From Streptosporangiaceae bacterium (GTDB taxonomy: Bacteria > Actinomycetota > Actinomycetes > Streptosporangiales > Streptosporangiaceae), in NCBI GenBank assembly GCA_035308365.1, contig DATGGU010000012.1:93161-125160 (forward strand): DNA of 32,000 nucleotides. Direction: 5' to 3'. Numbering within the stretch: the stretch's first letter is position 1; the number at the start of each line of letters is the position of its first letter. Positions 1 to 17,434 of this stretch are shown here, in pieces. Under the pieces are notes generated by a model that did no database searches, was not told the origin of the DNA, and was given only the letters and a program-made list of their open reading frames with translations. Made by a program: the position numbers and the translations under genes.

Positions 1-734
1 ACGAGCGGCAGGCCGAGGATCTCGTCGGCGGCCGGATCGACGCGGCGTGGAACTCCCCGCTGGCCTGGATTCGGGCGCGGCGGCTGGCCGACGCCGCGGG
101 AATCAAGCTGGAAGCCCTGGTCATGCGGGACACCGACCGGGATCTGCGGTCCCTGGTGGTCACCAAGGTGGGCTCGGGCATCGAGAACCTGTCCCAGCTC
201 GACGGCCGCACGATCGCCGTCGGCGCCGTCGACTCGCCGCAGGCCAACCTGCTGCCGGTGTCGCTGCTGCGCAAGAACGGCCTGATCCCTGGGGAGAACC
301 TGACCGTCCGGCGGTTCGACGTGGGCGTCGGGCTGCACGGCGACCACATCGGGGGCGAGCGGGATGCCGCCCGCGCGCTCATGGCCGGTGCGGTGGACGC
401 GGCCTGCATGATCGACGCGAACCACCTGCTGTTCTCCCGCGAGGGTGTGCTGCCGGCCGGATCGACCACGGTCATCGGCGAGACCGACCCCTTCGATCAC
501 TGCAACATGACGATCGGGCCGTCCGCCGACCCGGCGGAGGTGAGCCGGTTCCGCGAGCTTCTCCTAGCCATGTCCTACGACGACGCCACGCTGCGCCCGC
601 TGCTTGACCTGGAGGGCCTGAAGCTGTGGTGTCCCGGCCGCACCAGCGGGTATCAGGCGCTGGAGACGGCCGTTGACGAGATTGGCTTCTACGGAAGTGG
701 TGGTGATGTCCGCGCCAGCGACTATCGACCTTGA
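1..734 (+). CDS. PhnD/SsuA-like ABC-type substrate-binding protein (5' partial; open from the window edge)
   Basis: The frame is open from base 3 (ERQAEDLVGGRIDAAWNSPLAWIRARRLADAAG...) into the listed ORF at 123. Motifs such as 'LDGRTIAVGAVDSPQANLLPVSLLRKNGL' and 'GSTTVIGETDPFDHCNMTIGPSADP' resemble the phosphonate-binding-like fold. Confidence 0.75.
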   Translation, partial: ERQAEDLVGGRIDAAWNSPLAWIRARRLADAAGIKLEALVMRDTDRDLRSLVVTKVGSGIENLSQLDGRTIAVGAVDSPQANLLPVSLLRKNGLIPGENLTVRRFDVGVGLHGDHIGGERDAARALMAGAVDAACMIDANHLLFSREGVLPAGSTTVIGETDPFDHCNMTIGPSADPAEVSRFRELLLAMSYDDATLRPLLDLEGLKLWCPGRTSGYQALETAVDEIGFYGSGGDVRASDYRP

Positions 735-1893
735 GGATCTAGGCCTGGAGTCCGGAGGCCACCTGCTCGTGCAGCGTGGCCTCCGGGACCTTCCGGTCGG
801 CGGGCGGCTGTCCGTCCGCGGCCAGGATCCCGCACTGCGCACCCACCTGGGTGCCTGGTGCCGCAGCCAGGGTCACGGCATCGACCTGACCGGCGTAACA
901 CCCGTCGTGGTCAAGGGCTCGGCGAGCAGCGCACGCTGGCACCGCGCCGAACGGGCCGGCCGTCCTGACGTCAATGGAGTGGTGCCACGGGCGGACGTCC
1001 GCTGGGGCCTCGCGCCACGTGGCGCCCTGGTGGAAGAAGGTGGCCCGCCGCTCAACGTGGACCTCATCGACCAGGATGTGGTCTGGGCGGACGCGGCCAG
1101 GCAGCTCTATGTGAACGGCGCCGCCCGGCAGTGGAACCCCGATACCGCCATCGCCTGGGACGCCGAGTTCGAGCTGCCCGAAGAGATCGAGACCGCGGTC
1201 GTTCAGGTGATGACCTACCTGATCGAGAACGAGTACGCGGCGCTGCAGATACCGGCCAAGTTCATCGGGCGCCTGCACCCGCACTATCGCGAGGTGATGC
1301 AGGTTCTCTCGGTGCAGGTCGCCGACGAGGCCCGCCACGTCGAGGTGTTCACCAGACGGGCGCTGCTGCGTTCCAGCGAACTCGGCGTGTCCGGCGCCGG
1401 TGGCCGGGCTTCGCTGCAGACCCTGCTCGACGAGCCGGATTTCTCGCTCGCCGCCTTCCTGCTTTCGGTGCTCGGAGAGGGCAGCTTCCTGGATCTGCTG
1501 TCCTTCATCGCGCGGCACGCACCCGACCCGGTGACCCGTGAGGTGGCCAGCCTCGCCCAGCGGGACGAGCGCCGGCACGTGGCGTTCGGGATGGCGCACC
1601 TGAAATACGCGGTCGAGGCCGACCGGTCGATGCTCGGCCGGATGCGGATGGCGGCCGAGCGCCGGCATGACGCACTGGCCAGTACCGCGGGACTCAACCA
1701 GGACGTCTTCGATTCGCTGATCGTCCTGGCCGCGCATTCCTGGTCGCCCGCCGCGATCACCGACGGCTGGAGCGCCGTTCAGCAGTTGCAGTACGACATG
1801 GACCAGGGCCGGCAGCGCCGCCTGGCTCAGCTCGGCTTTCCCGCTGACGAGGCGACCGAACTGTCCGCGCTGCACACCCGCAACTTCATGTAG
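706..1893 (+). CDS. Ferritin-like di-iron domain protein with an N-terminal TusA-like segment
   Basis: N-terminus 'LRDLPVGGRLSVRGQDPALRTHLGAWCRSQGHGI' is TusA/SirA-like. The C-terminal part has di-iron motifs 'ENEYAALQ', 'DEARHVEVF', 'GEGSFLDLL' and 'DERRHVAFG'. ATG at 706 overlaps the upstream CDS. Confidence 0.7.
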   Translation: MSAPATIDLEDLGLESGGHLLVQRGLRDLPVGGRLSVRGQDPALRTHLGAWCRSQGHGIDLTGVTPVVVKGSASSARWHRAERAGRPDVNGVVPRADVRWGLAPRGALVEEGGPPLNVDLIDQDVVWADAARQLYVNGAARQWNPDTAIAWDAEFELPEEIETAVVQVMTYLIENEYAALQIPAKFIGRLHPHYREVMQVLSVQVADEARHVEVFTRRALLRSSELGVSGAGGRASLQTLLDEPDFSLAAFLLSVLGEGSFLDLLSFIARHAPDPVTREVASLAQRDERRHVAFGMAHLKYAVEADRSMLGRMRMAAERRHDALASTAGLNQDVFDSLIVLAAHSWSPAAITDGWSAVQQLQYDMDQGRQRRLAQLGFPADEATELSALHTRNFM

Positions 1894-1947: not shown

Positions 1948-3651
1948 TCAATCGCTGTGCTGGCCGAGTTCCGCGTGGTTCAGCCACCGGCCGAGGGCCC
2001 GCAGCGAGTAGGTGTGCGCGATGAGGTCGTCGCTGTAGTTCATCTGGTCGTAGTAGAGCCCGACCGCGGCCGGCCGCCATGTTCCCGCGCTGTCCTGCTG
2101 GGTGACCAGCCAGTCCACCGCCCGGACAACCTGGTCGTCCCACGGCGGCAGGCCGGCCCGCAGCAGCGCGTACAGAGCCCAGCCCGTTTCCTCGGCGGTG
2201 CCGCCATCCGGCCCCTCGGTGGCTGTCATCGGCCAGGAGCCATCCGGCCGCTGGGTGGCCCGCAGCCACTGCCGGGCACGGGTGGCCACCGGATCGGTCA
2301 GCCGGCCGAACTCCGCGTACGTCTCCAGCACCTTGGCGGTGCCATGGGTGCGGTCCCTGAACCACAGCGACGGGATGCCACCGTCGGCACCCTGCTCGGT
2401 CTCGAAGTACCTGAACGCCCGCTCGACCGGCGACCGCGGGCCGCCGCCGCCGGCGCCGAACCGGCGCAGCGCACTGATCACGTGAGCGGTGACACCGGCG
2501 CACGGCCCGTCGTGGATCATGGATGAATTCCGCACCCACTCCGACCATGAGCCGTCCTTGTTCTGCCGGGACAGCAGCCAGCGCAGGCCAGCCTTGATCG
2601 CCGGGTGCTCCGCGGGGACGCCGAGCATGCCCAGGGTGGACATGACGACCGCGGTGTCCTCCGATTCGGGCCAGCCGGTCGGGTTGGCCCAGGACCAGCC
2701 GCCGGCGGGCAGCCTGAGCGCGTCGAAGGGCTCCGTCCATTGCGCCGAGAGCAGCCAGTCCCTGGTGGCCACCAGCCGCTCGTCAGCACTGACATCCGCA
2801 CGTTCGGCCAGGGCGGCCACGGCGTAGCCGGTCACCGCCAGTTCCAGGTCCCGGTCGATCGCCCACGATCCGTCCGGCCGCTGCGTCGCCAGCAGGTAGT
2901 CCAGGCAGCCGCGCTGGATGTCCGCGCCGATATCCGGGCCGGCCAGGCTGAGGCCCAGGTAGACCAGTGCGGCCATCAGCGGGCACTCTTCCATCCCGCC
3001 GTTGCTCCCCTGAACGGCGCGCAGCCAGGCCAGGCCCTTGGGCTCGGCCAGCCGGCGGGCGATCCTGGCCGGCCTGCTGAGCTTCATGACCCGCGACTGC
3101 CAGGCGCCCAGCCCGATGACCCCGGGCAGCGCGATCGACGCCCGGTTGCGGAACCTGGCCGGAAGCAGCATCACCTCGATGGGCTGGACCGGCTGATCAT
3201 CGGCGTCACGCAGCCCGGCCATCGCCCAGACGATCGCCACAAGCTCCCGCCATGTCCTGATGTTCGGCAGGATCGCGGCCTCGCCGCCGCTGGCTTCGAT
3301 GAACTTCGTGCCTTCGCCGATGCACCGCCTCGAACCGGCCGGATCAAGGGACTTCAGCGCGGCCAGCGCGAACGCCGTGACGCTCGGATCGCCGGGCGGA
3401 TCGCTGTCCGCCATGCCCCAGCCGCCATCGGACTGCTGGCTGGCCCGCAGCCAGCCGAGCCCGGCCTCGATCTTGTCCTGGTACGCGGCGCGATCCGCCT
3501 GGGCCAGGGCCAGCAGCCCGATCGCCGTCGGCATCGCGGAGGATGAGAGCCGGTCGGTCCAGCCACCATCCCCCCGCTGCTGGGCGTAGAGCAGGCCGGT
3601 GGCGGCGGCAACCGCTTCGGTTGCCCTCTTGTGCAGGTTGCGGCGTTCCAT
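1948..3651 (-). CDS. Squalene-hopene cyclase-like class II terpene cyclase with divergent acid motif
   Basis: 567 aa with repeated QW-type motifs (QRGDGGW, QQSDGGW, QRPDGSW, QNKDGSW, QRPDGSW, QDSAGTW). 'WPESEDTAVVMSTLG' aligns with the usual 'xxDxDDTA' active-site motif. Confidence 0.85.
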   Translation of the reverse strand: MERRNLHKRATEAVAAATGLLYAQQRGDGGWTDRLSSSAMPTAIGLLALAQADRAAYQDKIEAGLGWLRASQQSDGGWGMADSDPPGDPSVTAFALAALKSLDPAGSRRCIGEGTKFIEASGGEAAILPNIRTWRELVAIVWAMAGLRDADDQPVQPIEVMLLPARFRNRASIALPGVIGLGAWQSRVMKLSRPARIARRLAEPKGLAWLRAVQGSNGGMEECPLMAALVYLGLSLAGPDIGADIQRGCLDYLLATQRPDGSWAIDRDLELAVTGYAVAALAERADVSADERLVATRDWLLSAQWTEPFDALRLPAGGWSWANPTGWPESEDTAVVMSTLGMLGVPAEHPAIKAGLRWLLSRQNKDGSWSEWVRNSSMIHDGPCAGVTAHVISALRRFGAGGGGPRSPVERAFRYFETEQGADGGIPSLWFRDRTHGTAKVLETYAEFGRLTDPVATRARQWLRATQRPDGSWPMTATEGPDGGTAEETGWALYALLRAGLPPWDDQVVRAVDWLVTQQDSAGTWRPAAVGLYYDQMNYSDDLIAHTYSLRALGRWLNHAELGQHSD

Positions 3652-3678: not shown

Positions 3679-4725
3679 TCAGTTCTGGACGACCTGGTTT
3701 CTGCGCTTCACCCGGCTCGGTTCGTAGCTCTGCCGCATCATCACGATGGACGCCACCAGCCAGGCCCCCGCGGACGGTATGAGCAGCACCACGGCGATCC
3801 ACACGTTGCTCACGGCGGCGACGAATCCGGAGGTCAGGACCAGCCGCTCCACCACGATGATCTCGTGTGAGCGCAACGAGGTCAGCCGGGGTATCGGCCG
3901 CGGTGCGTGAATCAGCATGAGACCCGAGACCAGGCTCATCGCCACGGAGGCGGCCAGGAAGGGGACGTATCCGGCGAGGTGGAAGCGCGCGCCGAGGGTG
4001 AGCGGATAGCCGGCCGCCAGGCCCAGCCAGCCGAGGTCGAACGTGAGCAGCAACCACAGGGCCGGGGTGTCGCCGTGACGCACCGGGAACGTGCGGTAGC
4101 CACCGCTCCGGTCGCCGTCCCGGTCGCAGATGGCACCTATGACATTCGACCCGGAGTCGTGCAGCCAGAAGATCAGGGCGATCGGCAGCAGCCTGGGCTG
4201 CAGTGCGTGGCTGGTGGCCAGCGTGCCGTGGATAAAGGCCATGGCCGTCACCCCGCCGCGGACCAGATTGCCCCAAATGCCGTGCGCCTTAAAGTACTTG
4301 CTGTACGAGACGCCAAGCGTGAGGGCGGCAAGGACGACAAAGAAGTTCAATGGGTTCAGCAGAACCGCAATGACCATTCCGAGCAGCACGCAGACGACCA
4401 TGCCTGCGAATGCCTCCCAGGGCTTTACCCGGCCAGACGGCACCGGCCGCTGGGGCTTGGTTTTGGTATCCAGATCGCGGTCGAAATAGTCGCCACCATA
4501 CATGGCGGCGACCCAGCCGAGACTGGGTGCCAGCCAGGTTCCGATCAATCGCAGGGCAGGCCTGTCGCCCGACGCGAGCAGCGCGCCGGACACGCTGACC
4601 AAGCCGGTGTAAGAGAACAGGTCGAGCCGCCATATCTCGACATGCGCCACCAATCGGTCCCGCAGCTTGAGCCGTGGTTGCCCGGCGGCGAAGCCCGCGT
4701 CAGCACGGCCATAGGGAGACCTCAC
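3679..4725 (-). CDS. UbiA-family prenyltransferase (or UbiA-type terpene cyclase), membrane protein
   Basis: Two Asp-rich motifs, 'GGDYFDRDLDTKTKPQRPVPSG' and 'CDRDGDRSGGYRTFPVRHG', with multiple TM segments. A GTG start near 4725 is likely. The listed 1051-aa ORF is an over-extension antisense to senA. Confidence 0.85.
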   Translation of the reverse strand: MRSPYGRADAGFAAGQPRLKLRDRLVAHVEIWRLDLFSYTGLVSVSGALLASGDRPALRLIGTWLAPSLGWVAAMYGGDYFDRDLDTKTKPQRPVPSGRVKPWEAFAGMVVCVLLGMVIAVLLNPLNFFVVLAALTLGVSYSKYFKAHGIWGNLVRGGVTAMAFIHGTLATSHALQPRLLPIALIFWLHDSGSNVIGAICDRDGDRSGGYRTFPVRHGDTPALWLLLTFDLGWLGLAAGYPLTLGARFHLAGYVPFLAASVAMSLVSGLMLIHAPRPIPRLTSLRSHEIIVVERLVLTSGFVAAVSNVWIAVVLLIPSAGAWLVASIVMMRQSYEPSRVKRRNQVVQN

Positions 4726-4941
4726 AGTCACGACAGCGTTCCTCTCGGTTTGTCGGCATGCGTGTTCGCGGCCTGCGCGGACGAGGAGGAGGCAGAGCGC
4801 TCGGGTAGGGTCAGGTTTGCACGGAGTCTGGGAAAAGTGAAGTTGCACCCTGTTTATGTGCGGCAATGGCGACAACCGGTCTTTAGCCGCGGCCAAACGG
4901 GGAACTTCGCTTTTTATGGGATCGAGCGAAGGGGTGACGGC

Positions 4942-6237
4942 ATGCGAGCAATAACCCAGAGCGCGGAGCAGTTGGCCGGCTGGGTCATCGACGGCTGCCA
5001 GCGGACGCTGGATCTGGTGGCGGACCTGGACGACGAGCAGATGGTGGGCCCACTGCTGCCCACGGTAAATCCCCTGCTGTGGGAGATCGCCCACCTGGCC
5101 TGGTTCCAGGAGAAGTTCGTCCTCCGCCAGGCCTGCGGCCAGCCGCCGATCCTGAGCTTCGGGGACGCCCTGTACGACTCGGGGGCGATCCCGCACGACA
5201 CCAGGTGGCGGCTGGCGCTGCCGTCCCGCGAACAGACCGCCAGTTACATGCGCGAAGTGGCCGACCGGGTGGCGCAGGAGGTGCTGCGCCCGGACGCGAC
5301 CGACGTGGTGCGGCACTTCGCCCGGTACACCGTGCACCACTACGACATGCATACCGAGGCGCTGACATACACCAGGCAGACCCTGGGATTCCCGCCTCCC
5401 GTGCTGCCCGGGTCCACCGGCACACCGCAGGCGGCAGCCCTTCCCCGGGCGGGCGGACTGCCCGGGGACGTCGAGTTGCCGGGGGGGCGGTTCCTGCTCG
5501 GAGCCCTGCTGAGCGACCCGTTCGTCTACGACAACGAGAAATGGGCCCACCAGGTCGAGATCGCCCCGTTCGCCATCGCCCGGGCGCCGGTCACACAGGC
5601 CGAGTTCGCCGCGTTCGCCGACGACGGCGGCTATGCCGACACCAGGTGGTGGTCCGATGGTGGCGCCTGGCTGGGGGCCACCGGGGCGAAGCACCCGGTG
5701 TACTGGCGGCGCGACGGCGGCGGCTGGCAGCGCCGGCATTTCGACACCTGGGTGGACCTCGAGCCGCACCAGCCGGTGAGCCACGTGTGCTGGTGGGAGG
5801 CGGACGCGTACTGCCGCTGGGCGGGCCGCCGGCTGCCGACGGAGGCCGAGTGGGAGTACGCCGCAACCGGCGATCTCAAGCCGAGGCCCGTCTACCCCTG
5901 GGGTGATGCCGAGCCGGGCGCCGGGCACGCCGTGACCGACTGGCGCTGGTTCGGCCAGGCCGACGTCGCCGCCTGCGCCGAGGGGGACAGCCCGGCAGGC
6001 TGCCGGCAGATGATCGGCAACGTGTGGGAGTGGACGGCCAGCGACTTCACCGCCTACCCCAACTTCGAGCGGGACGCCTACTTCGAGAACTCCGAGCAGT
6101 TCTTCGGCCAGCGTAAGGTGCTGCGCGGGGGAGCCTGGGCGACCAGGGGCCGCCTGCTGCGGTCCACGTTGCGCAACTACTTCACCCACGAGCGCAGGGA
6201 TGTCGTGGCCGGCTTGCGCACCTGTGCGCCCCGCTGA
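4942..6237 (+). CDS. senA: SenA-like selenoneine synthase / EgtB-family non-heme iron enzyme (DinB_2 + FGE-sulfatase domain)
   Basis: 'HLAWFQEKFVLR' and 'HHYDMHTEAL' supply putative iron-binding His residues. FGE domain: 'DNEKWAHQVEIAPFAIARAPVTQAEF', 'LPTEAEWEYA', 'GNVWEWTAS', 'KVLRGGAWATR'. It is directly followed by a senB-type gene. Confidence 0.82.
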   Translation: MRAITQSAEQLAGWVIDGCQRTLDLVADLDDEQMVGPLLPTVNPLLWEIAHLAWFQEKFVLRQACGQPPILSFGDALYDSGAIPHDTRWRLALPSREQTASYMREVADRVAQEVLRPDATDVVRHFARYTVHHYDMHTEALTYTRQTLGFPPPVLPGSTGTPQAAALPRAGGLPGDVELPGGRFLLGALLSDPFVYDNEKWAHQVEIAPFAIARAPVTQAEFAAFADDGGYADTRWWSDGGAWLGATGAKHPVYWRRDGGGWQRRHFDTWVDLEPHQPVSHVCWWEADAYCRWAGRRLPTEAEWEYAATGDLKPRPVYPWGDAEPGAGHAVTDWRWFGQADVAACAEGDSPAGCRQMIGNVWEWTASDFTAYPNFERDAYFENSEQFFGQRKVLRGGAWATRGRLLRSTLRNYFTHERRDVVAGLRTCAPR

Positions 6238-6246
6238 CGGCCGGAC

Positions 6247-7257
6247 ATGATTCTGCTCGTCAGCCCGGCCGCCGCCGACAGCACGACCGGCAACGGAGTC
6301 ACCGCGCGCCGCTGGGCGGGTTTTCTGCGCGAGCTGGGCCACCAGGTGGAGCTGAGCCGCGAATACCGCGGCGGCGGCTACGACGCACTGCTCGCGCTGC
6401 ACGCCCGCAAGAGCGCGGACGCCATCCGCGCCTTCCGGGCCAGCCATCCGGGTACCCCGGTGGTGCTCGCCCTGACCGGGACGGATCTCTATCCCGACCT
6501 CGCCACCGCCGGTGTGGATCCGGAGGTGCTGGCCATGGCCGACCGGCTGGTGCTGCTGCAGCCACGTGGCCTGGATCAGCTCGATCCGGCCACGCGGGAA
6601 AGGGCCCGGGTGATCGTGCAGTCGGTGCCCCCGATCGAGCGGAAACCGCCGCGGGCCGGCTGCTTCGAGGTGGCCTTCCTGGCTCATCTCCGGCCGGTTA
6701 AGGACCCGCTGCGGCCGGCCGAAGCGGTGCGCGAGCTGCCAGCCGGGTCCCGGATCCGGGTCACTCACCTCGGTGCAGCCCAGGACGCCGAACTCGGCGC
6801 CGCGGCGGCGGCCGAGTCGGCCGCGAACCCGCACTATGACTGGCTCGGCCCAAGGCCACGGAAGGAGGCACTGGACCTGCTGGCCCGCAGCCGCCTGCTC
6901 GTGCTGACCTCACGGCACGAAGGCGGCGCCAACGTCATCTCCGAGGCGCTGGCCGCCAGGCTGCCCATTGTCTGCTCGGCGATCCCGGGCTCGGTCGGGC
7001 TCCTTGGCGAGGACTATCCCGGCTACTTCCCGGTCGGCGACGGCGGCGCCCTCGCCCGTGCGCTGTATGACGCGGAGCAGGACACCGGCGGCTACTACGG
7101 CGCGTTGCGCGAGCACTGCGCCTCGCTGGCCGGCCTGGTCGACCCCGAACGTGAACGCCGTGCCTGGGCCGGCCTGCTGGCCGAGCTGGCCCTGCCGGCC
7201 AGCGGGTTCGCAGACTTATTCAAAACCAGCCCGGCAGCCTTGACGCCAGGTTCGTGA
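6247..7257 (+). CDS. senB: SenB-like selenosugar synthase (GT-B glycosyltransferase family)
   Basis: 'DSTTGNGVTARRWAGFLRELGHQVEL', 'YDALLALHARKSADAIRAFRASHPGTPVVLALTGTDLYPDL', 'ADRLVLLQPRGL' and 'LLVLTSRHEGGANVISEAL' match the SenB-type pattern. The gene begins 9 bp after senA. Confidence 0.85.
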   Translation: MILLVSPAAADSTTGNGVTARRWAGFLRELGHQVELSREYRGGGYDALLALHARKSADAIRAFRASHPGTPVVLALTGTDLYPDLATAGVDPEVLAMADRLVLLQPRGLDQLDPATRERARVIVQSVPPIERKPPRAGCFEVAFLAHLRPVKDPLRPAEAVRELPAGSRIRVTHLGAAQDAELGAAAAAESAANPHYDWLGPRPRKEALDLLARSRLLVLTSRHEGGANVISEALAARLPIVCSAIPGSVGLLGEDYPGYFPVGDGGALARALYDAEQDTGGYYGALREHCASLAGLVDPERERRAWAGLLAELALPASGFADLFKTSPAALTPGS

Positions 7258-8521: not shown

Positions 8522-9178
8522 TTAGCTGACCGGCCTATTCTCAAGACTCCATTCCAGCATCCCGCCGTTCAGCCGCCTGGCCCGCCAGCCATTGGACCGC
8601 AGCAAGCGGACGGCCGCATAAGCGAGCACGCAGTACTCGCCCCGGCAGTATGCTACGACCTCGAGATCAGCGGGTAGTTCGGACAGCCGCTGGCATAGTT
8701 CGTCCAGCGGTATTCCGATTGCACCCTCGATGTGCGCGGCGGTGAACTCCGTCGCCGGCCGCACGTCGAGCAGGACCAGTTCGCCGTTCCTGAGCCCGTC
8801 GAGCAGGTCGTCCCGGCTGATCGCCTCGACCTCGTCTTCCCCGAGAAACTCTCTGGCCACCCGCTCGGTCTCGGCCAGGTACATCATCGCCACGTCGCGC
8901 AGCATGACATAAAGCCTGGCCACGTCGCCGGCGGCCAGCCGGTAGTAGATCCGGGCCCCGTCCCTGCGGCCGCGCACCAGCCCGCCGGCCCGCAGCGTCT
9001 GCAGGTGTGCCGAGGCCGTGGTGAGCTTGAGTGCGGTGGCCTGGGCCAGTGACTCCACGGTACGCTCGCCCTGCGCGAGCACGTCTATGATCTGCAGCCT
9101 TTTCGGGTTCGCCAGCGCCTTACCGACGCGAGCCAGCTGATCGAAAAGTGCATCCTTTGTGCGAGCGCGATCAGACAT
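8522..9178 (-). CDS. ArsR-family HTH regulator fused to a rhodanese domain
   Basis: HTH: 'LANPKRLQIIDVLAQGERTVESLAQATALKLTTASAHLQTLRAGGLVRGRRDGARIYYRL'. Rhodanese: 'LLDVRPATEFTAAHIEGAIGIP' and 'VVAYCRGEYCVLAYAAVRLLRSNGWRARRLNGGMLEW'. Confidence 0.9.
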   Translation of the reverse strand: MSDRARTKDALFDQLARVGKALANPKRLQIIDVLAQGERTVESLAQATALKLTTASAHLQTLRAGGLVRGRRDGARIYYRLAAGDVARLYVMLRDVAMMYLAETERVAREFLGEDEVEAISRDDLLDGLRNGELVLLDVRPATEFTAAHIEGAIGIPLDELCQRLSELPADLEVVAYCRGEYCVLAYAAVRLLRSNGWRARRLNGGMLEWSLENRPVS

Positions 9179-9347: not shown

Positions 9348-10529
9348 GTGATTACTGTGGATGCCGTAGCCTTTCCCCGGCCGATGACTCAAGACGGCCT
9401 GCCCGATCCCCTGCTGCTCGAGCTGGCCGCGGACAACCCCGTGCTGCCCGTCGCCGGGCCAGGCGGCAAGGCGTGGCTGATCACCGGCCACGAAGCCGTT
9501 CGCGAGGCGCTGTCCGAGCCCTCCCGGTTCACCAGCGTCATCGATCCGGCGGTGACCGACGCCAGGGCCCGCGCGGGTGTGTCGATGGTGGGGCTGGACC
9601 CACCCGACCACACCCGGGTACGGAAGCTGGCCGCGAAGGCCTTCACCGCCCGGCGCATCCAGGGGCTCGTGCCGAGCGTGGAACGTGTGGTCACCACGTT
9701 GCTGGACGCGATGGCGGAGGCCGGCCCGCCGGCCGACCTGGTGACGTCGCTCGCGGTGCCCCTCCCGCTGCACATGATGTGCCAGATGCTCGATCTGCCG
9801 GCCGAGGACCAGCCCGGCTTCCTGCGCTGGTCCGACGTGTTCACCGGCATGAACACCGGCTACACGATGGAGGAAGTCGCCGACGCCAACGACAAGCTGC
9901 ACGCCTACATGCTCGATCTGGCGGCGCGGCGCAGGAAGCACCTGGGCGAAGACCTGTTGTCCGATCTTATCCGCGCCCGCGATGGCGAGGACGCCCTGAC
10001 CGAGCAGGAACTGCTCAACACGATGGTCCTGTTGCTGGTGGCCGGGCACCAGACCACGGTGCGCGCCATCGCCAGGAGCGTGCTGGTCCTGCTCCACTCG
10101 GGTCAGTGGAAGCGGTTCGCCGCGGCCGAGGTCACCGCCGAGCAGGTGGTCGAGGAGGCGTTGCGGCACCAGACGCCGATCGACACCGGCCTGTTCCGCC
10201 GGGCTGCCGTGGACACCGAGATCGCCGGTGTCCAGATCAAGGCCGGCGAGCAGGTGTTCCTCAGCGTGCACCTGGCCAACTTCGACCGCAACGCCTGGCA
10301 CGAGCCGCACGTGTTCGACCCCGGCCGCGGTGACCAGCGGCACCTGGCATTCGGCCACGGTGTCCACTTCTGCCTCGGCGCGCCGCTGGCCAGACTGGAG
10401 CTCAGCACCGCCCTCAGCCTGCTGGCGGCCCGGTTCCCCGGCCTGCGGATGGACGTCCCGCTTGACGAGCTGACCTGGACGGTGGGTTCATGGCTCAACA
10501 GCCTGGTCGCTCTTCCCGTCACCTGGTGA
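9348..10529 (+). CDS. Cytochrome P450
   Basis: I-helix 'LLVAGHQTTVR', 'EEALRHQTPIDTGLFRRA' (ExxR region nearby) and heme-binding loop 'FGHGVHFCLGAPLARLEL'. Confidence 0.93.
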   Translation: MITVDAVAFPRPMTQDGLPDPLLLELAADNPVLPVAGPGGKAWLITGHEAVREALSEPSRFTSVIDPAVTDARARAGVSMVGLDPPDHTRVRKLAAKAFTARRIQGLVPSVERVVTTLLDAMAEAGPPADLVTSLAVPLPLHMMCQMLDLPAEDQPGFLRWSDVFTGMNTGYTMEEVADANDKLHAYMLDLAARRRKHLGEDLLSDLIRARDGEDALTEQELLNTMVLLLVAGHQTTVRAIARSVLVLLHSGQWKRFAAAEVTAEQVVEEALRHQTPIDTGLFRRAAVDTEIAGVQIKAGEQVFLSVHLANFDRNAWHEPHVFDPGRGDQRHLAFGHGVHFCLGAPLARLELSTALSLLAARFPGLRMDVPLDELTWTVGSWLNSLVALPVTW

Positions 10530-10703: not shown

Positions 10704-12197
10704 ATGAGCATCGAAATCAGTGCTGCGGACCGGGCGAAGCTACTGCATGCCCTGGTGGAAGAGATCGAAAACTATCTTGATACCGCGGCCGATGACACTG
10801 GCCGCTCGCCGGTGGCCGATGCGGACGTCGACGAGCTGCTGGCCGCCTTTGATTTCGATCAGCCGGTAGCCGCGGCCGATGCCCTGGATCTAGCCATTCG
10901 CGGATTGCGTGATATGCAGCCGCGCACCCGGCACCGGCGGTATTTCGGATTGTTCGATGCCACCCCCACGACCATGTCAATTATCGGTGAAGCGCTGTCC
11001 GCCACCTTCAACCCATGCCTGGCCACCCGCAACGGGAGCCCGTTCGGCATCGCCGCGGAGGAAAAGCTGGTTGCCGCATTTGGCGAGAAATTCGGTTATC
11101 CGCCCTGCGAGGTGGACGGAATCCTGACCAGCGGCGGGTCGGAGACGAATCTTTCGGCCATGCTGATGGCCCTTACCCACCGGATTCCCAGCTATCCGCA
11201 GACCGGCCTGATCGGGCTGGCCAGCCGTCCGGTCGTTTACGTTTCGCCGGAGGCCCACCCATCGGTGCCGCGTGCGGCCCGCCTGACCGGCCTGGGTGCC
11301 GAGTCGGTGCGCGAGGTTGAGACCGACTGCGCGCAGCGCATGGACCTGGCCGCGCTGGAGAAGATGATCGTCGCCGACCAGCGGGCCGGGCTGACGCCGG
11401 TTGCCGTGGTGGTGACCGCGGGCACAACCGGCGCGGGCGCCATCGACCCGATCGACGGAGCCGCCTGCATCGCTGCCAGGCACGGGCTGTGGCTGCACGT
11501 CGATGCGGCGTGGGGCGGCGCGGCCGCGCTGCTGCCCGATCCCGACCCGGCATTCCAGGGCCTGGCCAGGGCGGACTCGCTCACCTTCGACCCGCACAAG
11601 TGGATGTCGGTGCCGCTTGGCCTGGGAATGCTGCTCACCCGCCATCGTGGCCTGCTGGCCAGGACCTTCTCGGCCGGCCCGACATTTCTCGACGCCGATG
11701 GGCGGGAGGCGGAGCCATTCAGCCGGTCGCTGCGCTGGTCCCGTAGCTTCGCAGCACTGAAACTGCTGCTTTCACTCGCGGTGACCGGCTGGCAAGGGTT
11801 CGAGGAAACCTTGCGGCAGCAGATGAGGCTGGCCGACGAATTGCGCAAAGGGCTGGCCGGATCGGGCTGGCAGATCGTCAATGACACACCACTGCCGCTG
11901 GTTTGTTTCCTGCCGGCCGACCGGGCCGAACAGCACCCGCACAGATTGCGACTTATCGCCAGGGCCATCAATTCCACCGGTGACGCTCATATCTTCGTGG
12001 TCAAGTCCGGCGGACGGCACGTGCTGCGAGCCTCCATCACGAACTACGCGACCACGGAAGCGGACGTCGTGGCGCTGATCGGCCTGCTCGACGACGCGGC
12101 CCGGCGGTCACAGGGCTTACCCGGCCCGTCACACAACCGGCCCGCATGGGAGGTGCCGCCGCGATGGTCGATACGAAGACCGCGAGCCCCCCGCTGA
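10704..12197 (+). CDS. PLP-dependent group II amino-acid decarboxylase
   Basis: 'ILTSGGSETNLSAM', 'VVVTAGTTGAGAIDPI', 'LWLHVDAAWGGAAAL' and 'SLTFDPHKWMSVPLG' (PLP lysine). Confidence 0.88.
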   Translation: MSIEISAADRAKLLHALVEEIENYLDTAADDTGRSPVADADVDELLAAFDFDQPVAAADALDLAIRGLRDMQPRTRHRRYFGLFDATPTTMSIIGEALSATFNPCLATRNGSPFGIAAEEKLVAAFGEKFGYPPCEVDGILTSGGSETNLSAMLMALTHRIPSYPQTGLIGLASRPVVYVSPEAHPSVPRAARLTGLGAESVREVETDCAQRMDLAALEKMIVADQRAGLTPVAVVVTAGTTGAGAIDPIDGAACIAARHGLWLHVDAAWGGAAALLPDPDPAFQGLARADSLTFDPHKWMSVPLGLGMLLTRHRGLLARTFSAGPTFLDADGREAEPFSRSLRWSRSFAALKLLLSLAVTGWQGFEETLRQQMRLADELRKGLAGSGWQIVNDTPLPLVCFLPADRAEQHPHRLRLIARAINSTGDAHIFVVKSGGRHVLRASITNYATTEADVVALIGLLDDAARRSQGLPGPSHNRPAWEVPPRWSIRRPRAPR

Positions 12198-13450
12198 CCT
12201 CATGGCGCCGGGACTTCCGGCAGCTCTGGACAGCGCAGACGGTGTCGTCGTTCGGCAGCCAGATCACCACGGTGGCGCTGCCGCTGACGGCCGCGGGGCT
12301 GCTGCACGCCAGCGCGGGGGAGATGGGCATACTCGCGGCCGGGTCCACCCTGCCCAACCTGCTGTTCTCGTTCTATTTCGGGGCGCTGGTCGACCGGGTC
12401 TTCCGGCGCTGGGCGCTGCTGGTGTGGGCCGACCTGATCCGGATGGTGCTGCTCGCCCTGATCCCGGTGGCATGGGCGGCCGGTTTCCTGTCGGTCGGCC
12501 TGCTGATCGGCATCGCGTTCGTGACCGGCGCGGCCAGCCTGTCGTTCGGGATCACCTGGTCCGCGTATCTGCCCTCGGTGGTTCCGGCCGGCAACCTGGT
12601 CGAAGCGAACAGCAAGCTGCAGGCCAGCATGACGATCGCCGATCTCGGCGGTGTCAGCCTGGCCGGAGCGCTCGTGCAGCTCTTCGGCGCGCCCAACGCG
12701 ATGACCATCGACGCCGTCTCGTTCGCCTTCTCGGCGGTGTTCCTGGCCCGGATGCGTTACCGGGACGGCCAGAAGCCCGCCCCGCGTGAGGGCAAGCCCA
12801 ACATGTGGCGCGAGGTGGGCGAGGGCCTTCGGTACTGCGTCAGCGAACCGCGGCTCCGGGCGATCGCCGGGGCGGCGGCCAACCTGAACCTGTTCAGCAG
12901 CGTCGCCCTGGCGCTCGGCATCCTGTTCCTCAACCGGACACTGCGGATTCCGCCATACCTGATCAGCCTGATCTTCGCCGCGTGGGGAGTGGGCGCCGTG
13001 GGGGGCTCGCTGCTGGCCCCGATGCTGGGACGGCGGTTCACCGAGGGGCGCACGATCATCGCCGCGTCGGCCGTCTTCTCCGTCGCCCTGTTCGCCTACC
13101 CGCCGGTGCACGGGCCGGTGTGGTTCGAGTCCACCGCGCTGATCATCGTCAACATCGCCTTCGGCTTCGCGGTGTTCGTCTTCGACGTGCACACTGCCGC
13201 GCTGCGCCAGGTGATATCCCCGGACGAGCTGCAGGGCCGGACCGCGTCGGCGATGGCGTTCGTGACCCAGGGGGTCAAGCCGGCCGGCGCCCTGCTCGGC
13301 GGCGTGCTGGGCGAGACCATCGGAATCCGGGGGGCGCTGTGGTTCGCCGCCGCCGGAACGATCACCACCGTGCTGTGGACCTACCGGTCCCCCCTGCGCC
13401 TGGGGAAGGGAGCCGAGGCCGTCACGGCCGAACCAGATCCAGTGACCTGA
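12164..13450 (+). CDS. MFS transporter (EntS-like exporter type)
   Basis: 'FRQLWTAQTVSSFGSQITTVALPLTA' followed by about 12 hydrophobic segments. GGAGG lies upstream of ATG 12164. Overlaps the decarboxylase 3' end. Confidence 0.88.
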   Translation: MVDTKTASPPLTSWRRDFRQLWTAQTVSSFGSQITTVALPLTAAGLLHASAGEMGILAAGSTLPNLLFSFYFGALVDRVFRRWALLVWADLIRMVLLALIPVAWAAGFLSVGLLIGIAFVTGAASLSFGITWSAYLPSVVPAGNLVEANSKLQASMTIADLGGVSLAGALVQLFGAPNAMTIDAVSFAFSAVFLARMRYRDGQKPAPREGKPNMWREVGEGLRYCVSEPRLRAIAGAAANLNLFSSVALALGILFLNRTLRIPPYLISLIFAAWGVGAVGGSLLAPMLGRRFTEGRTIIAASAVFSVALFAYPPVHGPVWFESTALIIVNIAFGFAVFVFDVHTAALRQVISPDELQGRTASAMAFVTQGVKPAGALLGGVLGETIGIRGALWFAAAGTITTVLWTYRSPLRLGKGAEAVTAEPDPVT

Positions 13451-13468
13451 ACAAGCCTTGGAGACGTC

Positions 13469-14728
13469 ATCAAAGTCCTGTTCTTTGTCATCCCGGCGCA
13501 CAGCGACCTGCATTCGGTAATCCCGGTCGCCGAGGAACTTGTTGCCCGGGGCGATCAGCCGGTCCTCTACCTCACCGGGGAATTCGCCCCTGCGGTGCGG
13601 CGGGCCGGTGCGCAGTTCCGGCCGCTCGATCCCGCCGTCGACCTGTATGGGGAGCTTTCCAGCGGGAATCCGCTCGCTTCCATCGCAGATGCCGGAAAGG
13701 TCATCGAGCGGATGGGACCGTTGGTTGCCAACCTGCTCGTCGAGGGCCTGCGGGTGGTGCCGGCCATGATAGACGCGGTCCGTGCGGAGAATGCGGACTG
13801 CATCGTCTACAACCCCATGTGCCCGTGGGGCATCGCATTGGCGAGGATGCTCGGCCTGCCGGCGGTCACCTTCTCCACGACCTTCGTGATGAAGCCCGGA
13901 TCGGACTTCGAGCAGATGTTCGCCACCTCCGCGAACGCGGAGAAGATGGCGGCCACCTGGGACTACGTCCGGCGCAGCGTCGATGAACTGCACACCTTGC
14001 ACGGCGTCCCACCGCTGCGGCTGAGCGACATGTTCTCCCCCTGCGAGCCGGCGAACATCGTGCCGATCATCCGGGAGTTCCAGCCCGATGCCGCCAGCCT
14101 GGACGAGCGCTACCTGTTCACCGGCCCATCGATCCGCGGCGGCGGCACCGATCCCGGCTTCCCGCTCGATCACCTGGACGGCGGGCCCGGCCTGTATATT
14201 TCGCTCGGCACGGCCATCAGCCGCGGATCCGGATCACGGTTCGCCCGCCTCTGCTTCGATGCGTTCGGCGGTACCGGCTGGCGGGTGGTGCTGTCCGCCG
14301 GGGCCGGGACCGACCTGGCCTCGCTGGGCACGCCGCCCGCCAACTTCCTGGTCCGCGGCCACGTCCCGCAACTTGACGTGCTCCGCCGGGCGGACGTCTT
14401 CGTCACCCATGGCGGCGTCAACTCGGTCATGGAAGCCATGTGGCACGGCGTTCCGCTGGTCGCGATCCCGCACACGATCGAGCAGCTGATGTTCGCCGAC
14501 CGGGCCGCCCAGCTCGGCCTGGGAGTCAGGCTCGACCCAGCCGGCATCACCGCCGGTGCCCTGCGCGTGGCGGTGGACTCGGTCGCCGCCGATCCCGGCT
14601 ACCGGGCCAGGCTCGCCGGGATATCGGCAGCGGCCAGGCAGGCCGGCGGGTACCAGCGGGCCGCGGATGCCATTGCGCAGGCCGCCAGCCGGTCAGTTCT
14701 TTCCAGCCAGCCCACTGCCGCGATATGA
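13469..14728 (+). CDS. GT1/MGT-family glycosyltransferase, with N-terminus apparently beginning at a non-canonical ATC
   Basis: In-frame upstream coding gives (I)KVLFFVIPAHSDLHSVIPVAEELVARGDQPVLYLTGEFAPA joining the listed ORF at 13595. C-terminal donor motif 'VTHGGVNSVMEAMWHGVPLVAIPHTIEQLMFADRA'. Confidence 0.82.
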   Translation: MKVLFFVIPAHSDLHSVIPVAEELVARGDQPVLYLTGEFAPAVRRAGAQFRPLDPAVDLYGELSSGNPLASIADAGKVIERMGPLVANLLVEGLRVVPAMIDAVRAENADCIVYNPMCPWGIALARMLGLPAVTFSTTFVMKPGSDFEQMFATSANAEKMAATWDYVRRSVDELHTLHGVPPLRLSDMFSPCEPANIVPIIREFQPDAASLDERYLFTGPSIRGGGTDPGFPLDHLDGGPGLYISLGTAISRGSGSRFARLCFDAFGGTGWRVVLSAGAGTDLASLGTPPANFLVRGHVPQLDVLRRADVFVTHGGVNSVMEAMWHGVPLVAIPHTIEQLMFADRAAQLGLGVRLDPAGITAGALRVAVDSVAADPGYRARLAGISAAARQAGGYQRAADAIAQAASRSVLSSQPTAAI

Positions 14729-15642
14729 CCAGGGAAAAGTTTACGATGGCCGAAACGCCGGAGCTGCCGCCGATCGTGTGCGCGGTGGACGACCGTTACG
14801 TCAGCCCGCTCTGTGTCTTCATGCAGTCGCTGTCCGCGGCCCACCCCGGCCTGCCGCTCCGGGTGATCGTGATGCACCAGGGCCTGACCGACGGCAACTG
14901 CCACCGAATCCATTTCCACGCCGAACGGCTCGGGCTGCGAGCCGAACTGCGGGCGGCGCCGGGGGTGGACCCGAGGTACCCGGTGAGCATGTGGGTGACC
15001 GACGCGACGTATCTGCGGCTTGCGTTGCCGGATGTGGTCACGGACTACCCGCTCGCCTTGTACATGGACGTGGATCTCATTGTCCTGCGGGATCTGCGCC
15101 GCCTGCTGACCACCGGGCTGGACGGGTTCCCGCTGGCCGCGGTCCGTGACCCGCTCAACCCGACGCTGGGCACCGGATTCGGCCTGCCCGGCTGGCAGAA
15201 CCTTGGCCTGCCTGCCTCCAGGGAATACTTCAACGGCGGCGTCATACTCTTCAACCTGCCCGAATGCCGCCGGCGCGGGACCTTTGAAGCGAGCCAGCGA
15301 TTCGCCCGTGATATGCCGCGACACATTTTGTTCTGGGACCAGGACGCGCTGAACTGGGCAGTGGACGACACATGGCTGCGGCTGGACAGATGCTGGAACA
15401 CATTGTCGGTATCAGCGCTGAGCGAGACGTTCCAGGACTGGAAATACCTCGCCGAAGACGTCCTGCCGTTCAGCCGGCTCATCGAGGACGAGCGCACGGC
15501 CGCGGTGTTCCACTTCGCGGGCCCGCTCAAGCCGTGGAATCCGGACTATCCGGCCGGCCCGGCCCGTGATCTCTACGCGTCTTTCGCCCGGCAGGTCGCC
15601 GGCAGCGAGCCGCTGGCAGGTGTGACTGAGGAGAAGGCATGA
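14725..15642 (+). CDS. GT8-family glycosyltransferase
   Basis: 'YMDVDLIVLRDL' (DxD), 'YFNGGVILFNL', 'WDQDALNWAV' and 'VFHFAGPLKPW'. ATGA overlap with the upstream GT. Confidence 0.85.
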   Translation: MTREKFTMAETPELPPIVCAVDDRYVSPLCVFMQSLSAAHPGLPLRVIVMHQGLTDGNCHRIHFHAERLGLRAELRAAPGVDPRYPVSMWVTDATYLRLALPDVVTDYPLALYMDVDLIVLRDLRRLLTTGLDGFPLAAVRDPLNPTLGTGFGLPGWQNLGLPASREYFNGGVILFNLPECRRRGTFEASQRFARDMPRHILFWDQDALNWAVDDTWLRLDRCWNTLSVSALSETFQDWKYLAEDVLPFSRLIEDERTAAVFHFAGPLKPWNPDYPAGPARDLYASFARQVAGSEPLAGVTEEKA

Positions 15643-16232
15643 GTTCCCAGCGCAGCGAGGTCGCCGAAAGAAAGTCCCCGGCAGTTGCCACTCCCGTCAC
15701 ACTGGGCCTGCGCACCGGCCCACTCGGCCGTGCCATCCGGCTGTTCGGTGCCGTGGTGCTGGGCCTGGGGGTGTCCTCCTTCATCCAGACCGGAGTCGGT
15801 CATTTCGGCCGGGCCAGCGAGGTGCGATCGCCCACCATGTGGGTGCTCACCGTGATCGTGGCGATCCTCCTGGTCGACCTGATCGTCAGGTTCCTGCCGT
15901 TCCCCCGCGTGGTCCGAGGGGTCATCCTGGCCGCGGTGGTCATCGCGGTGATCGTGACGGCGGCCATCCGCGCCGCGTCCCCGGGGCCGCTGTGGGGCCC
16001 GCCGCTGAGCAGCCTGGTCTGGTGGATCGACGTGGCCGACCTGAGCTTCTCCACCGCCAGCCTGGTGCTCTCCATCCCGATCGGCACTCCTGGCTGCGAA
16101 AAGGTGGCGTGGGCCGAGTTGTACGTCATGCTGCGCGGCGGCCGGCGGCCGGCCGGGAGATGGTGCGTCGGCGGATTGCATGTTGTCGACAACTGGGAGA
16201 TCGCGCGCCGGCTCAGACGTGCTCAGGCCTGA
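15639..16232 (+). CDS. Small multi-pass membrane protein of unknown function
   Basis: ATGA start/stop overlap with the GT8 gene and several hydrophobic segments. No recognised catalytic motif. Confidence 0.6.
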   Translation: MSSQRSEVAERKSPAVATPVTLGLRTGPLGRAIRLFGAVVLGLGVSSFIQTGVGHFGRASEVRSPTMWVLTVIVAILLVDLIVRFLPFPRVVRGVILAAVVIAVIVTAAIRAASPGPLWGPPLSSLVWWIDVADLSFSTASLVLSIPIGTPGCEKVAWAELYVMLRGGRRPAGRWCVGGLHVVDNWEIARRLRRAQA

Positions 16233-16307
16233 CATATTCGCCTTACCGGAAGTATCATGGCGGCATGATATTCGCCTATCCGGATGAGTCAGGATGAAGG
16301 AGGCCGC

Positions 16308-16748
16308 ATGCGAGGGCGTTCCGGCCGCTCCTGCTGTGCCCAGGAACCTTCCCTGGGCACCGCCGACCGGTACCTGACCGGGGAGCGGCGCCGGGTCATG
16401 GTGCGCCGGGCGATCCTGGTTGTATCGGCCGCACTATTTGTGGCGGCCGTCACGATATCGGCGTCAGGGGTGGGGCAGGCGGCGCTCGCTCACCGATTGT
16501 GCTGGGGGTCTGCCATCTGCGCGTCCGGCCTTGCGGCCACCTGGATCCGGCAGGCGATGACCACCGGGCGGCCCGGCTGGCGGCTGCTGGCCGCGGTGGC
16601 CGCGGTGGCCGCCGGCATCGCCTGGCAGCCGGTCATCCCGGCGGCCGCGGCCGTCGCCGCGCTGACCGAGCACACGCTGCGCCGGGGCGCCGTCCCGGTG
16701 CTCACCGCGCGAGCCGGTTCCCGTCAGGTAGCCAGGACGAACGGCTGA
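16308..16748 (+). CDS. Small membrane protein of unknown function
   Basis: AAGGAGG precedes ATG 16308. Hydrophobic stretches 'AILVVSAALFVAAVTISAS' and 'LLAAVAAVAAGIAW'. Confidence 0.5.
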   Translation: MRGRSGRSCCAQEPSLGTADRYLTGERRRVMVRRAILVVSAALFVAAVTISASGVGQAALAHRLCWGSAICASGLAATWIRQAMTTGRPGWRLLAAVAAVAAGIAWQPVIPAAAAVAALTEHTLRRGAVPVLTARAGSRQVARTNG

Positions 16749-16753
16749 CTCCG

Positions 16754-17434
16754 GTGTCCTCGTTCGTCTTCATGAAGCTCCTTGAGACCCGGGCATCCCG
16801 CTACGACCGCGGGATGCGGTTGCTCACCTTCGGCCGGATCGGCGGGCTGTACCGGGCGATCGCCGGGCACATCCCACCGGGCAGCGAGGTCCTGGAGATC
16901 GGCTGCGGCACCGGCGGGCTCACCGCCGAACTGGCCGGCCGAGGCTGCCGGGTGACCGCGGTCGACCGCTCCCCCCAGATGCTCGCGATCGCCGCGCGCA
17001 AGCTGGCAGAGATCGATACGGCCGCGAGCCCGCGGCTGCTGCCCCTGTCGATCACCGGCCTGGACCGGACGTTCGGTGCCGGCGCGTTCGACTACGTCGT
17101 GAGCTGCCTGGTACTCAGCGAGCTGACGGCCACAGAGGAACGCTACGCGCTGGACTGCTCCGTCCGGCTGCTGCGCCCGGGCGGTGGCCTGGTGATCGCC
17201 GACGAGGTGCTGCCAGCGAACCCGGTGCGCCGGGTGATCTATCATGCGACGCGGCTGCCGGTGGCGGCACTGGCCTACCTGCTGACCCAGACGTCGAGCC
17301 ATCATCTCCGCGACATCGACGGCAAGCTGCGCAGCCGGGGGCTGGAGGCGGTCGAGCGGACGACGTTGCAGCACGGCTCGTTCGCCATCGTGGCGGGGAG
17401 GAAGCCGGCATGCCGTCTGCAGCCCCAGAAGTGA
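16754..17434 (+). CDS. Class I SAM-dependent methyltransferase
   Basis: 'GSEVLEIGCGTGGLTAELAGRGCRVTAVDRSPQML' and 'FDYVVSCLVLSEL...RLLRPGGGLVIADE'. Confidence 0.88.
   Translation: MSSFVFMKLLETRASRYDRGMRLLTFGRIGGLYRAIAGHIPPGSEVLEIGCGTGGLTAELAGRGCRVTAVDRSPQMLAIAARKLAEIDTAASPRLLPLSITGLDRTFGAGAFDYVVSCLVLSELTATEERYALDCSVRLLRPGGGLVIADEVLPANPVRRVIYHATRLPVAALAYLLTQTSSHHLRDIDGKLRSRGLEAVERTTLQHGSFAIVAGRKPACRLQPQK

Follow-up and report, generated by a model that had tools for sequence, protein, structure and literature searches.

In a stretch of 32,000 nucleotides from a Streptosporangiaceae bacterium (assembly GCA_035308365.1, contig DATGGU010000012.1, positions 93,161 to 125,160), here called the window, the genes senA and senB for a predicted selenoneine synthase and a predicted selenosugar synthase lie between genes for terpenoid biosynthesis. 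We found that this divergent unit, with UbiA and a cyclase on one side and SenA and SenB on the other, is conserved in several actinobacterial genera, as judged by homology and gene order. Our best explanation, which we put forward tentatively and at a little short of an even chance, is that the cluster is a hybrid in which selenoneine, or the selenosugar from which it is made, becomes joined to a cyclised prenyl chain. The clustering of sen and terpene genes in cultured actinomycete genera suggests an undescribed selenium-containing terpenoid, although it does not prove one.

The genes at the core of this arrangement are the following:

1948 to 3651, minus strand: class II cyclase resembling squalene-hopene cyclase (SHC-like; SQHop_cyclase_N and SQHop_cyclase_C domains)
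3679 to 4731, minus strand: UbiA-family prenyltransferase (PF01040, 131.5 bits, cut-off 34.2)
4942 to 6237, plus strand: senA, predicted non-haem-iron selenoneine synthase, 431 amino acids (third-position GC about 0.9)
6247 to 7257, plus strand: senB, predicted selenosugar synthase (Se-glycosyltransferase), 336 amino acids
7301 to 8332, minus strand: polyprenyl diphosphate synthase, convergent with senB (PF00348, 196.9 bits)
9348 to 10529, plus strand: cytochrome P450 with orthologues in sen-linked terpene clusters

Because the DNA of the window is about 69% G+C, coding frames were chosen by third-position GC. The two sen genes are co-directional, with 9 bp between the senA stop and the senB start, and the UbiA gene is divergent from senA across a spacer of 210 bp. 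The domain matches agree with the original prediction, which had placed the pair between UbiA/SHC-like and prenyl synthase genes. Six contigs from soil metagenomes encode an identical SenA protein and have the same genes around it, as far as each contig reaches; the arrangement is therefore no assembly artefact.

Conservation of the sen-terpene linkage

The same arrangement as in the window is present in locus L087, whose SenA is 93% identical. In L092 (SenA 84% identical), the cyclase and UbiA are followed by SenA and SenB and then by the polyprenyl synthase, SelD and a fusion of an ArsR-type regulator with a rhodanese. These last three are transcribed in the order ArsR-rhodanese, SelD, polyprenyl synthase, and only 6 bp separate the end of selD from the synthase gene. 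A mirror image of the window core was found in Amycolatopsis sp. TNS106 (L097; CP024972) and Actinokineospora sp. (L100), where SenA and SenB are divergent from UbiA, cyclase, glycosyltransferase and IspG. The full order in both is DXS, P450 and a group of ABC (ATP-binding cassette) permease, ATPase, selenate-type binding protein, SenB and SenA, divergent from the group of UbiA, cyclase, a family 1 glycosyltransferase (GT1) and IspG. The selenate-type binding protein of L100 passed its family cut-off (TIGR04553, 358.7 bits, cut-off 250). A third order is seen in Streptomyces sp. NPDC058812 (L096), where P450, cyclase, SenA, SenB and ferredoxin share a strand. Its cyclase, SenA and SenB are separated by 18 bp at one junction and overlap by 4 bp at the other, and DXS, IspG, IspH and UbiA belong to the same cluster a few kb further on. 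Orthologues of the window UbiA thus adjoin senA in L092, L097 and L100 and share its cluster in L096. In total, the adjacency of sen and terpene genes was found in three gene orders and four genera, and because it is conserved across genera we do not regard the terpene link as ordinary. The original prediction was right to suggest that the terpene context might matter; the conservation across genera, our main finding, goes beyond what it could see.

Moreover, 16 pairs of SenA and cyclase homologues came from contigs of identical length and from the same source collection, where about 1-2 would be expected by chance according to our estimate, and two of the 16 were confirmed directly by retrieval. 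A metagenome scan with the cyclase returned two short loci (L094 and L095), which are informative but too few for statistics.

The conserved linkage may also be explained by two modules that are neighbours and otherwise independent. In that case senA and senB, together with the distant selD, would make selenoneine as end product, and a terpenoid glycoside unrelated to it would come from UbiA, cyclase, polyprenyl synthase, P450 and glycosyltransferases. Inheritance of one ancestral region, or shared stress-responsive regulation, for example by the ArsR-rhodanese protein, would then account for the clustering, with no product in common. We regard this explanation as a strong contender, somewhat below an even chance. 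It is challenged by the persistence of the adjacency through the different gene orders and genera and by the operon-like spacing of cyclase, SenA and SenB in L096 and of selD and polyprenyl synthase in L092. One P450 is, moreover, orthologous only among the sen-linked clusters: the window P450 has orthologues of 56-60% identity in L096, L097 and L100, and the values are 30-41% in terpene clusters without sen genes. By this comparison, we count the P450 among the conserved core genes of sen-terpene clusters. In L100, terpene genes are also interleaved between the ABC transporter of the selenate type and a molybdoenzyme whose relatives are reductases of thiosulfate, polysulfide and selenate. On the side of independent neighbours stands the spacer between UbiA and senA. 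Alignment revealed a conserved block within the lineage of the window (window, L087 and L092) that has nothing in common with the spacers of Amycolatopsis or Actinokineospora, so that no operator is conserved across genera. A scan of three intergenic regions for inverted repeats gave only two 10-nt palindromes with overlapping arms, which we did not take as operators.

The molybdoenzyme of L100 is part of a set of genes at 14171-18849, directly past UbiA, cyclase, glycosyltransferase and IspG, that encodes an Fe-S protein, a membrane subunit of the NrfD type, a molybdopterin oxidoreductase similar to PhsA/Psr (384 bits, which is below the cut-off) and a chaperone resembling TorD. The set may represent a reductase of selenium oxyanions or of polyselenide.

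Identity of SenA and SenB and the acceptor of selenium

SenA, SenB and SelD were called with the curated family cut-offs of NCBI (NF041186, 420 bits; TIGR04348, 300 bits; TIGR00476, 125 bits). The protein encoded at 4942-6237 has DinB_2 and FGE-sulfatase domains and reached 483.5 bits on NF041186, 'selenoneine synthase SenA', while it missed the sister models for EgtB (TIGR03440, 313.5 bits, cut-off 360) and OvoA (114.6 bits, cut-off 400). NCBI lists it as 'selenoneine synthase SenA [Streptosporangiaceae bacterium]'. Its partner scored 359.8 bits on TIGR04348, 'selenosugar synthase SenB', and 191 bits against the solved structure of SenB from Variovorax paradoxus. The residues N20, H58, T83, G84, R155, K158 and E232 of V. 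paradoxus SenB correspond to N16, H53, T77, G78, R149, K152 and E225 in the window, and the first five of them have been assigned as selenophosphate contacts in the V. paradoxus structure (PMC11237966). R22 and H235 of V. paradoxus SenB are not conserved. The original prediction of a senA-senB pair at 4942-7257 is therefore confirmed, with the curated cut-offs passed and the residues for iron, selenosugar and selenophosphate retained.

For a comparison of the SenA active site with characterised SenA and EgtB, as the original prediction had proposed, we used the composite motifs for SenA, OvsA and EgtB-I from PMC11030361. By alignment, the residues for the iron site and catalysis are H51, H133/M136/H137 and the catalytic Y380, of which H51, H133, H137 and Y380 align with H71, H167, H171 and Y363 of V. 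paradoxus SenA (for their roles see PMC11237966). Selenosugar-type residues common to SenA and OvsA are found at N43/E48/H51 and H85/R88, where the S/D/H and R/R type of EgtB-I is replaced by N/E/H and H/R. In addition, N412/Y413/F414/R418 fit the N(F/Y)(F/Y)R of SenA, where OvsA has Q-A-Y and EgtB has N-W-D.

Could 4942-6237 encode a sulfur-dependent EgtB, and the pair have nothing to do with selenium? Many homologues are labelled 'EgtB' or 'gamma-glutamyl hercynylcysteine S-oxide synthase' by JGI, and the window protein scored 233 bits against EgtB of Mycolicibacterium thermoresistibile. It also resembles this EgtB-I (PDB 4X8B/4X8D) in its fold, DinB plus FGE-like, and the two have in common an iron site of three His, a catalytic Tyr and an Asn that binds hercynine. 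However, the thiol-binding Arg87 and Asp416 of EgtB are His85 and Phe414 in the window SenA, only the SenA model and not the EgtB model was passed, and the partner is a SenB that retains its selenophosphate contacts and not EgtA, EgtC or EgtE. SenA and SenB are adjacent in 64 of 80 species-level loci. We thus consider an EgtB identity extremely improbable; the window SenA does not group with the sulfur-dependent EgtB or with OvoA, and so the prediction withstood the grouping test that its author had set for its refutation.

Measured against the published strict SenA motif, xNEH--HRHxHYYN(F/Y)(F/Y)R (PMC11030361), 16 of 17 positions of the window SenA fit. Position 13 is N383 instead of Tyr, and hence the full motif is not present; the equivalent residues are Y366 in V. 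paradoxus SenA, Y380 in EgtB and M401 in OvsA. Each of the 120 closest homologues shows the same Tyr-to-Asn exchange, as do the eight other named actinobacterial sequences that were checked (six proteins, L007 and L008), whereas almost all SenAs outside Actinobacteria retain Tyr. Wherever the exchange occurs, motif position 15 has changed from Phe to Tyr, apparently in compensation. Production of selenoneine has been demonstrated in Amycolatopsis palatopharyngis (bioRxiv 10.1101/2022.04.13.486033), the one in vivo precedent, and SenA of this species has 69% identity to the window SenA and an identical active-site motif. Since the 120 closest homologues and this producer all carry Asn, we treat N383 as a variant of the clade and not as a reason for exclusion. 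On these alignments, the published strict motif is too narrow and would wrongly exclude the whole actinobacterial clade, a proven producer included.

An acceptor other than hercynine had been considered in the original prediction, in the form of an amine from the pyridoxal phosphate (PLP) decarboxylase encoded at 10704-12197; histidine, as used by the ovoselenol enzyme OvsA, is a further candidate. OvsA is indeed the top match among solved structures for the window SenA (293-299 bits), ahead of M. thermoresistibile EgtB and of V. paradoxus SenA (221 bits). Moreover, N383 lies in the acceptor pocket and deviates from the published SenA motif, and no egtD was found in the window. The ovoselenol cluster (OvsA, OvsM, SenB and SenC; PMC11030361) also shares the selenosugar-binding N/E/H and H/R with the window, and it is a precedent both for the reuse of sen genes toward a second selenometabolite and for chromosomally split genes. 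However, V. paradoxus SenA lacks a segment of 49 residues that the others have kept and therefore aligns in two pieces, which explains the higher score of OvsA. The OvsA-defining M401, Q430 and A431 are N, N and Y in the window SenA, and N412 and Y413 are as in hercynine-using enzymes. The Asn at position 13 is general in the clade, A. palatopharyngis included, and paired with the apparently compensatory Tyr; the window active site has the signature known from a selenoneine producer. The host of the window is an actinobacterium, whereas aquatic gammaproteobacteria are the source of OvsA, and no ovsM-type methyltransferase lies beside the senA-senB pair. The PLP decarboxylase was found only in L001-L003 and L087; Streptomyces, Amycolatopsis and Actinokineospora do not have it in their sen-terpene clusters, and because it is confined to the lineage of the window we grade the PLP-derived amine low. 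Altogether, a different acceptor appears improbable, and hercynine remains the acceptor that we prefer.

An identity of the window SenA as OvsA was rejected on the evidence of N383, N412 and Y413.

Two further observations concern SenA-like proteins in other bacteria. In Gammaproteobacteria (L042, L054, L056, L062, L063 and L082), SenA-like proteins have T-Y-Y at the site of N-(F/Y)-(F/Y) in SenA and Q-A-Y in OvsA, a further active-site variant, and their genes adjoin senB and selD. Two SenA-like genes were found in tandem in L068 (Solibacteraceae, 3778-6300) and on one short contig in L076 (Rokubacteria).

A possible selenium-containing terpenoid

The UbiA protein of the window has both Asp-rich motifs, DYFDRDLD (D81) and DRDGD, as well as KPQRP. 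Among solved structures, digeranylgeranylglyceryl-phosphate synthase and chlorophyll synthase match it best, so by structure match it is closest to enzymes that prenylate heteroatoms. The cyclase falls below all curated cyclase cut-offs, has squalene-hopene cyclase, a distant relative, as its best solved-structure match (98 bits) and carries E-S-E-D-T-A at residue 329 instead of the DxDD-T-A of squalene-hopene cyclases; this ESED motif was present in 107 of 120 homologues. We found no close characterised relative of the family. In the polyprenyl synthase, the small residues A/S before the first Asp-rich motif, DDIID, suggest a product of C20 or longer.

The second Asp-rich motif of the polyprenyl synthase (residues ~228-236) reads DDLLP, where DDxxD is usual.

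The set of enzymes is reminiscent of the logic of platensimycin-type terpenoids. Pairing of a UbiA-type enzyme with a class II cyclase occurs in bacterial terpenoids, as with PtmT1, PtmT2 and PtmT4 of platensimycin, and in thiol-terpenoid conjugates such as cyslabdan a low-molecular-weight thiol is attached to a terpenoid. The window shares with the platensimycin type a polyprenyl synthase, a cyclase of the SHC fold, a UbiA-family enzyme, a P450 and a glycosyltransferase, and it differs in its ESED cyclase family. To our knowledge, there are no terpenoid clusters with selenium genes. Moreover, our full-text literature searches, which did not cover subscription journals, found no description of a selenium-terpene cluster, and the window contains an orthodox sen pair in a conserved hybrid context that is apparently so far undescribed.

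In a hybrid cluster, the pathway could begin as in Variovorax, where it has been reconstituted. By homology, the selenocysteine-containing SelD (at 26.2 kb) would make selenophosphate, and SenB would displace the UDP of UDP-N-acetylglucosamine (UDP-GlcNAc) to give 1-seleno-GlcNAc. SenA, with non-haem iron and O2, would attach the selenium of this selenosugar to C2 of hercynine, which would be provided by an egtD elsewhere in the genome, and elimination of the selenoxide would release selenoneine. The polyprenyl synthase would supply a diphosphate of C20 or longer, and UbiA might move this chain to selenoneine or to the selenosugar precursor, most simply onto the nucleophilic selenium. The ESED cyclase would then cyclise the prenyl chain and the conserved P450 and the glycosyltransferases would decorate the product, a selenium-containing meroterpenoid. 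The narrower proposal that the sen-UbiA-cyclase cluster makes the first selenium-containing terpenoid in precisely this way, through a Se-prenyl bond formed by UbiA on selenoneine or 1-seleno-GlcNAc and subsequent ESED cyclisation, we consider rather unlikely.

A number of points weigh against coupling and, in part, in favour of independent neighbours. The argument for coupling is one of gene clustering throughout, and the contexts examined overall amount to a few dozen. Each module occurs alone in other actinobacteria: L088-L091, L093, L007 and L008 are sen loci without terpene genes, and Saccharomonospora xinjiangensis and Crossiella cryophila have the terpene cassette without sen genes. In a genome scan of 80 species-level loci, none had UbiA, cyclase or polyprenyl synthase beside senAB. 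As the scan was dominated by non-actinobacterial SenAs, with only L007 and L008 actinobacterial, it gives no frequency of the terpene link in actinobacterial sen loci. In a neighbour-joining tree, the terpene-linked SenAs are scattered through the actinobacterial clade and not separate from the unlinked ones, and they have no distinguishing active-site change; a known selenoneine producer has a SenA with the same active site as the window protein. Since there is neither a separate clade nor a difference in the active site, SenA probably makes plain selenoneine with or without terpene neighbours. Finally, the cyclase does not have the canonical DxDD motif, and UbiA could be a terpene synthase that needs no acceptor.

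The existence of a specialised terpene-linked SenA subfamily was ruled out by the same tree.

The content of the clusters, on the other side, favours a linkage of the two halves. In S. xinjiangensis and C. cryophila, a FAD_binding_3 monooxygenase is divergent from UbiA, in the slot that SenA and SenB fill in the linked clusters, and we saw no genes for making another aromatic acceptor in the sen-linked clusters.

The distant selD, neighbouring genes and known selenium pathways

The remaining annotated features of the window are listed here:

3 to 734, plus strand: Rv1680-family protein resembling a transporter substrate-binding protein, clipped by the window edge (NF049985, 163-221 bits, below the cut-off)
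673 to 1893, plus strand: protein with a TusA-like N-terminus and an AurF/R2-like di-iron domain (60% identity to the L089 gene directly upstream of senA)
8522 to 9178, minus strand: fusion of an ArsR-type helix-turn-helix domain with a rhodanese (HTH_5 and Rhodanese domains)
10704 to 16232, plus strand: lineage-specific extension with PLP decarboxylase, major facilitator superfamily transporter, GT1 (MGT-type), family 8 glycosyltransferase (GT8) and an unknown gene, by domain assignments
26249 to 27286, plus strand: selD (senC equivalent), selenocysteine-encoding

The only selD-like gene of the window starts 18,992 bp past the senB stop, with 14 other genes between, and its product scored 350 bits on TIGR00476. 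It has a GTG start with a GGAGG box upstream and an in-frame TGA at 26297-26299, within the motif SSGAG-U-ACK of the N-terminal glycine-rich loop. The original prediction of a sole, selenocysteine-containing SelD about 19 kb away is thus correct. The hairpin after the TGA is weak (z = -1.8; 7 of 200 shuffles were as good), and the selenocysteine call therefore rests on comparative evidence: an in-frame TGA is also present in the sen-embedded selD of L088-L090, and the window SelD is 73% identical to that of L089, which shares the TGA. A Cys codon is found instead in L092 and L093. SelD of the Cys type, found in L092 and Actinomadura alba, is about 49% identical to the selenocysteine type, so that by sequence comparison two types of SelD, one with selenocysteine (TGA) and one with Cys, serve actinobacterial sen loci. 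No tRNA gene, selA or selB was found in the window.

The three-gene sen cluster was originally defined by a search that started at selD (bioRxiv 10.1101/2022.04.13.486033), and at the window locus senA, senB and senC are not co-localised in this sense. The original prediction had contrasted the distant selD with known selenoneine clusters. By our count, the distance is not unusual. We compared 29 senA-senB pairs, each from a different species and with 7 kb or more of sequence on either side; 11 had a selD nearby and 18 had none. senAB without a neighbouring selD is the majority state and hence normal. The window selD, an orthologue of the selD found within sen loci, is most readily understood as a senC orthologue that was relocated by rearrangement.

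The genes at the left edge of the window appear in other sen loci as well. In L088-L090 (SenA 74-77% identity), we found, in this order, a TPMT-like methyltransferase, SelD, an acyl-CoA-dehydrogenase-family gene, a binding protein, a TusA/AurF-like protein and SenA. The Rv1680-type gene at 3-734, which also has a weak match to a putative selenate-binding protein family, is syntenic with senA in L088-L090 and L093, and the L089 orthologue of 673-1893 matches the AurF and TusA families. An Rv1679-like gene of the acyl-CoA-dehydrogenase family, located upstream in L001 (2137-3252), is a further partner in actinobacterial sen loci. The additional partners in L088-L090 and L093 are thus Rv1679-like, Rv1680-like and TusA/di-iron proteins, often together with a TPMT-like methyltransferase and a MetE-like gene. 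Judged by synteny, the leftmost window genes (3-734 and 673-1893) are members of an extended actinobacterial sen locus. The ArsR-rhodanese fusion, with the active-site loop YCRGEYC, is also found beside sen genes in L087, L092, L095 and L044, a Polyangiaceae metagenome-assembled genome among them, and may be a regulator of the locus that senses selenium or persulfide. The extension at 10704-16232 is kept only in L001-L003 and L087 and was not found in L096, L097 and L100.

Between the sen and terpene genes and selD, a co-directional module of metal or metalloid type lies at 16499-21319 on the plus strand. It encodes the methyltransferase CpaM (254 bits, cut-off 180), a corrinoid/ferredoxin fusion that resembles HgcAB (301.8 bits, cut-off 285) and has the cap-helix motif GGMNVWCASAGG, a P1B heavy-metal ATPase and a MerB-like lyase with a CAID motif and a second Cys motif. 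The module looks like an actinobacterial unit for methylation, demethylation and export of a metal or metalloid.

The senABC cluster known from V. paradoxus and A. palatopharyngis (Kayrouz and Seyedsayamdost, bioRxiv 10.1101/2022.04.13.486033) has in common with the window the adjacent, co-directional SenA and SenB, a SelD and a nearby protein of the substrate-binding type. It differs in that the window selD is remote and selenocysteine-encoding, that the pair is divergent from UbiA and cyclase and convergent with the polyprenyl synthase, and that loci of the window type add the acyl-CoA-dehydrogenase-family gene, the TusA/di-iron protein and ArsR-rhodanese. In the SenA motif, a single Y is changed to N.

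Even if the idea of a hybrid cluster fails, our data are of value for annotation, since they reveal the exclusion of a whole clade by the strict motif, additional partner genes of sen loci and the normality of senAB without a nearby selD. The known dedicated small-molecule end products of selenium are only selenoneine and ovoselenol, both made via a selenosugar intermediate, and the discoverers of these pathways predicted a larger selenium metabolome. A senA-senB pair locked to a UbiA/cyclase cassette is a recurrent genomic signature for a possible third selenium product, and it is present in sequenced strains, namely Amycolatopsis sp. TNS106, Streptomyces sp. NPDC058812 and probably Streptomyces sp. 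BB1-1-1. If the hybrid reading is true, its product would represent a third class of dedicated selenometabolites after selenoneine and ovoselenol, and its biosynthesis would include a new enzymatic route to the carbon-selenium bond.

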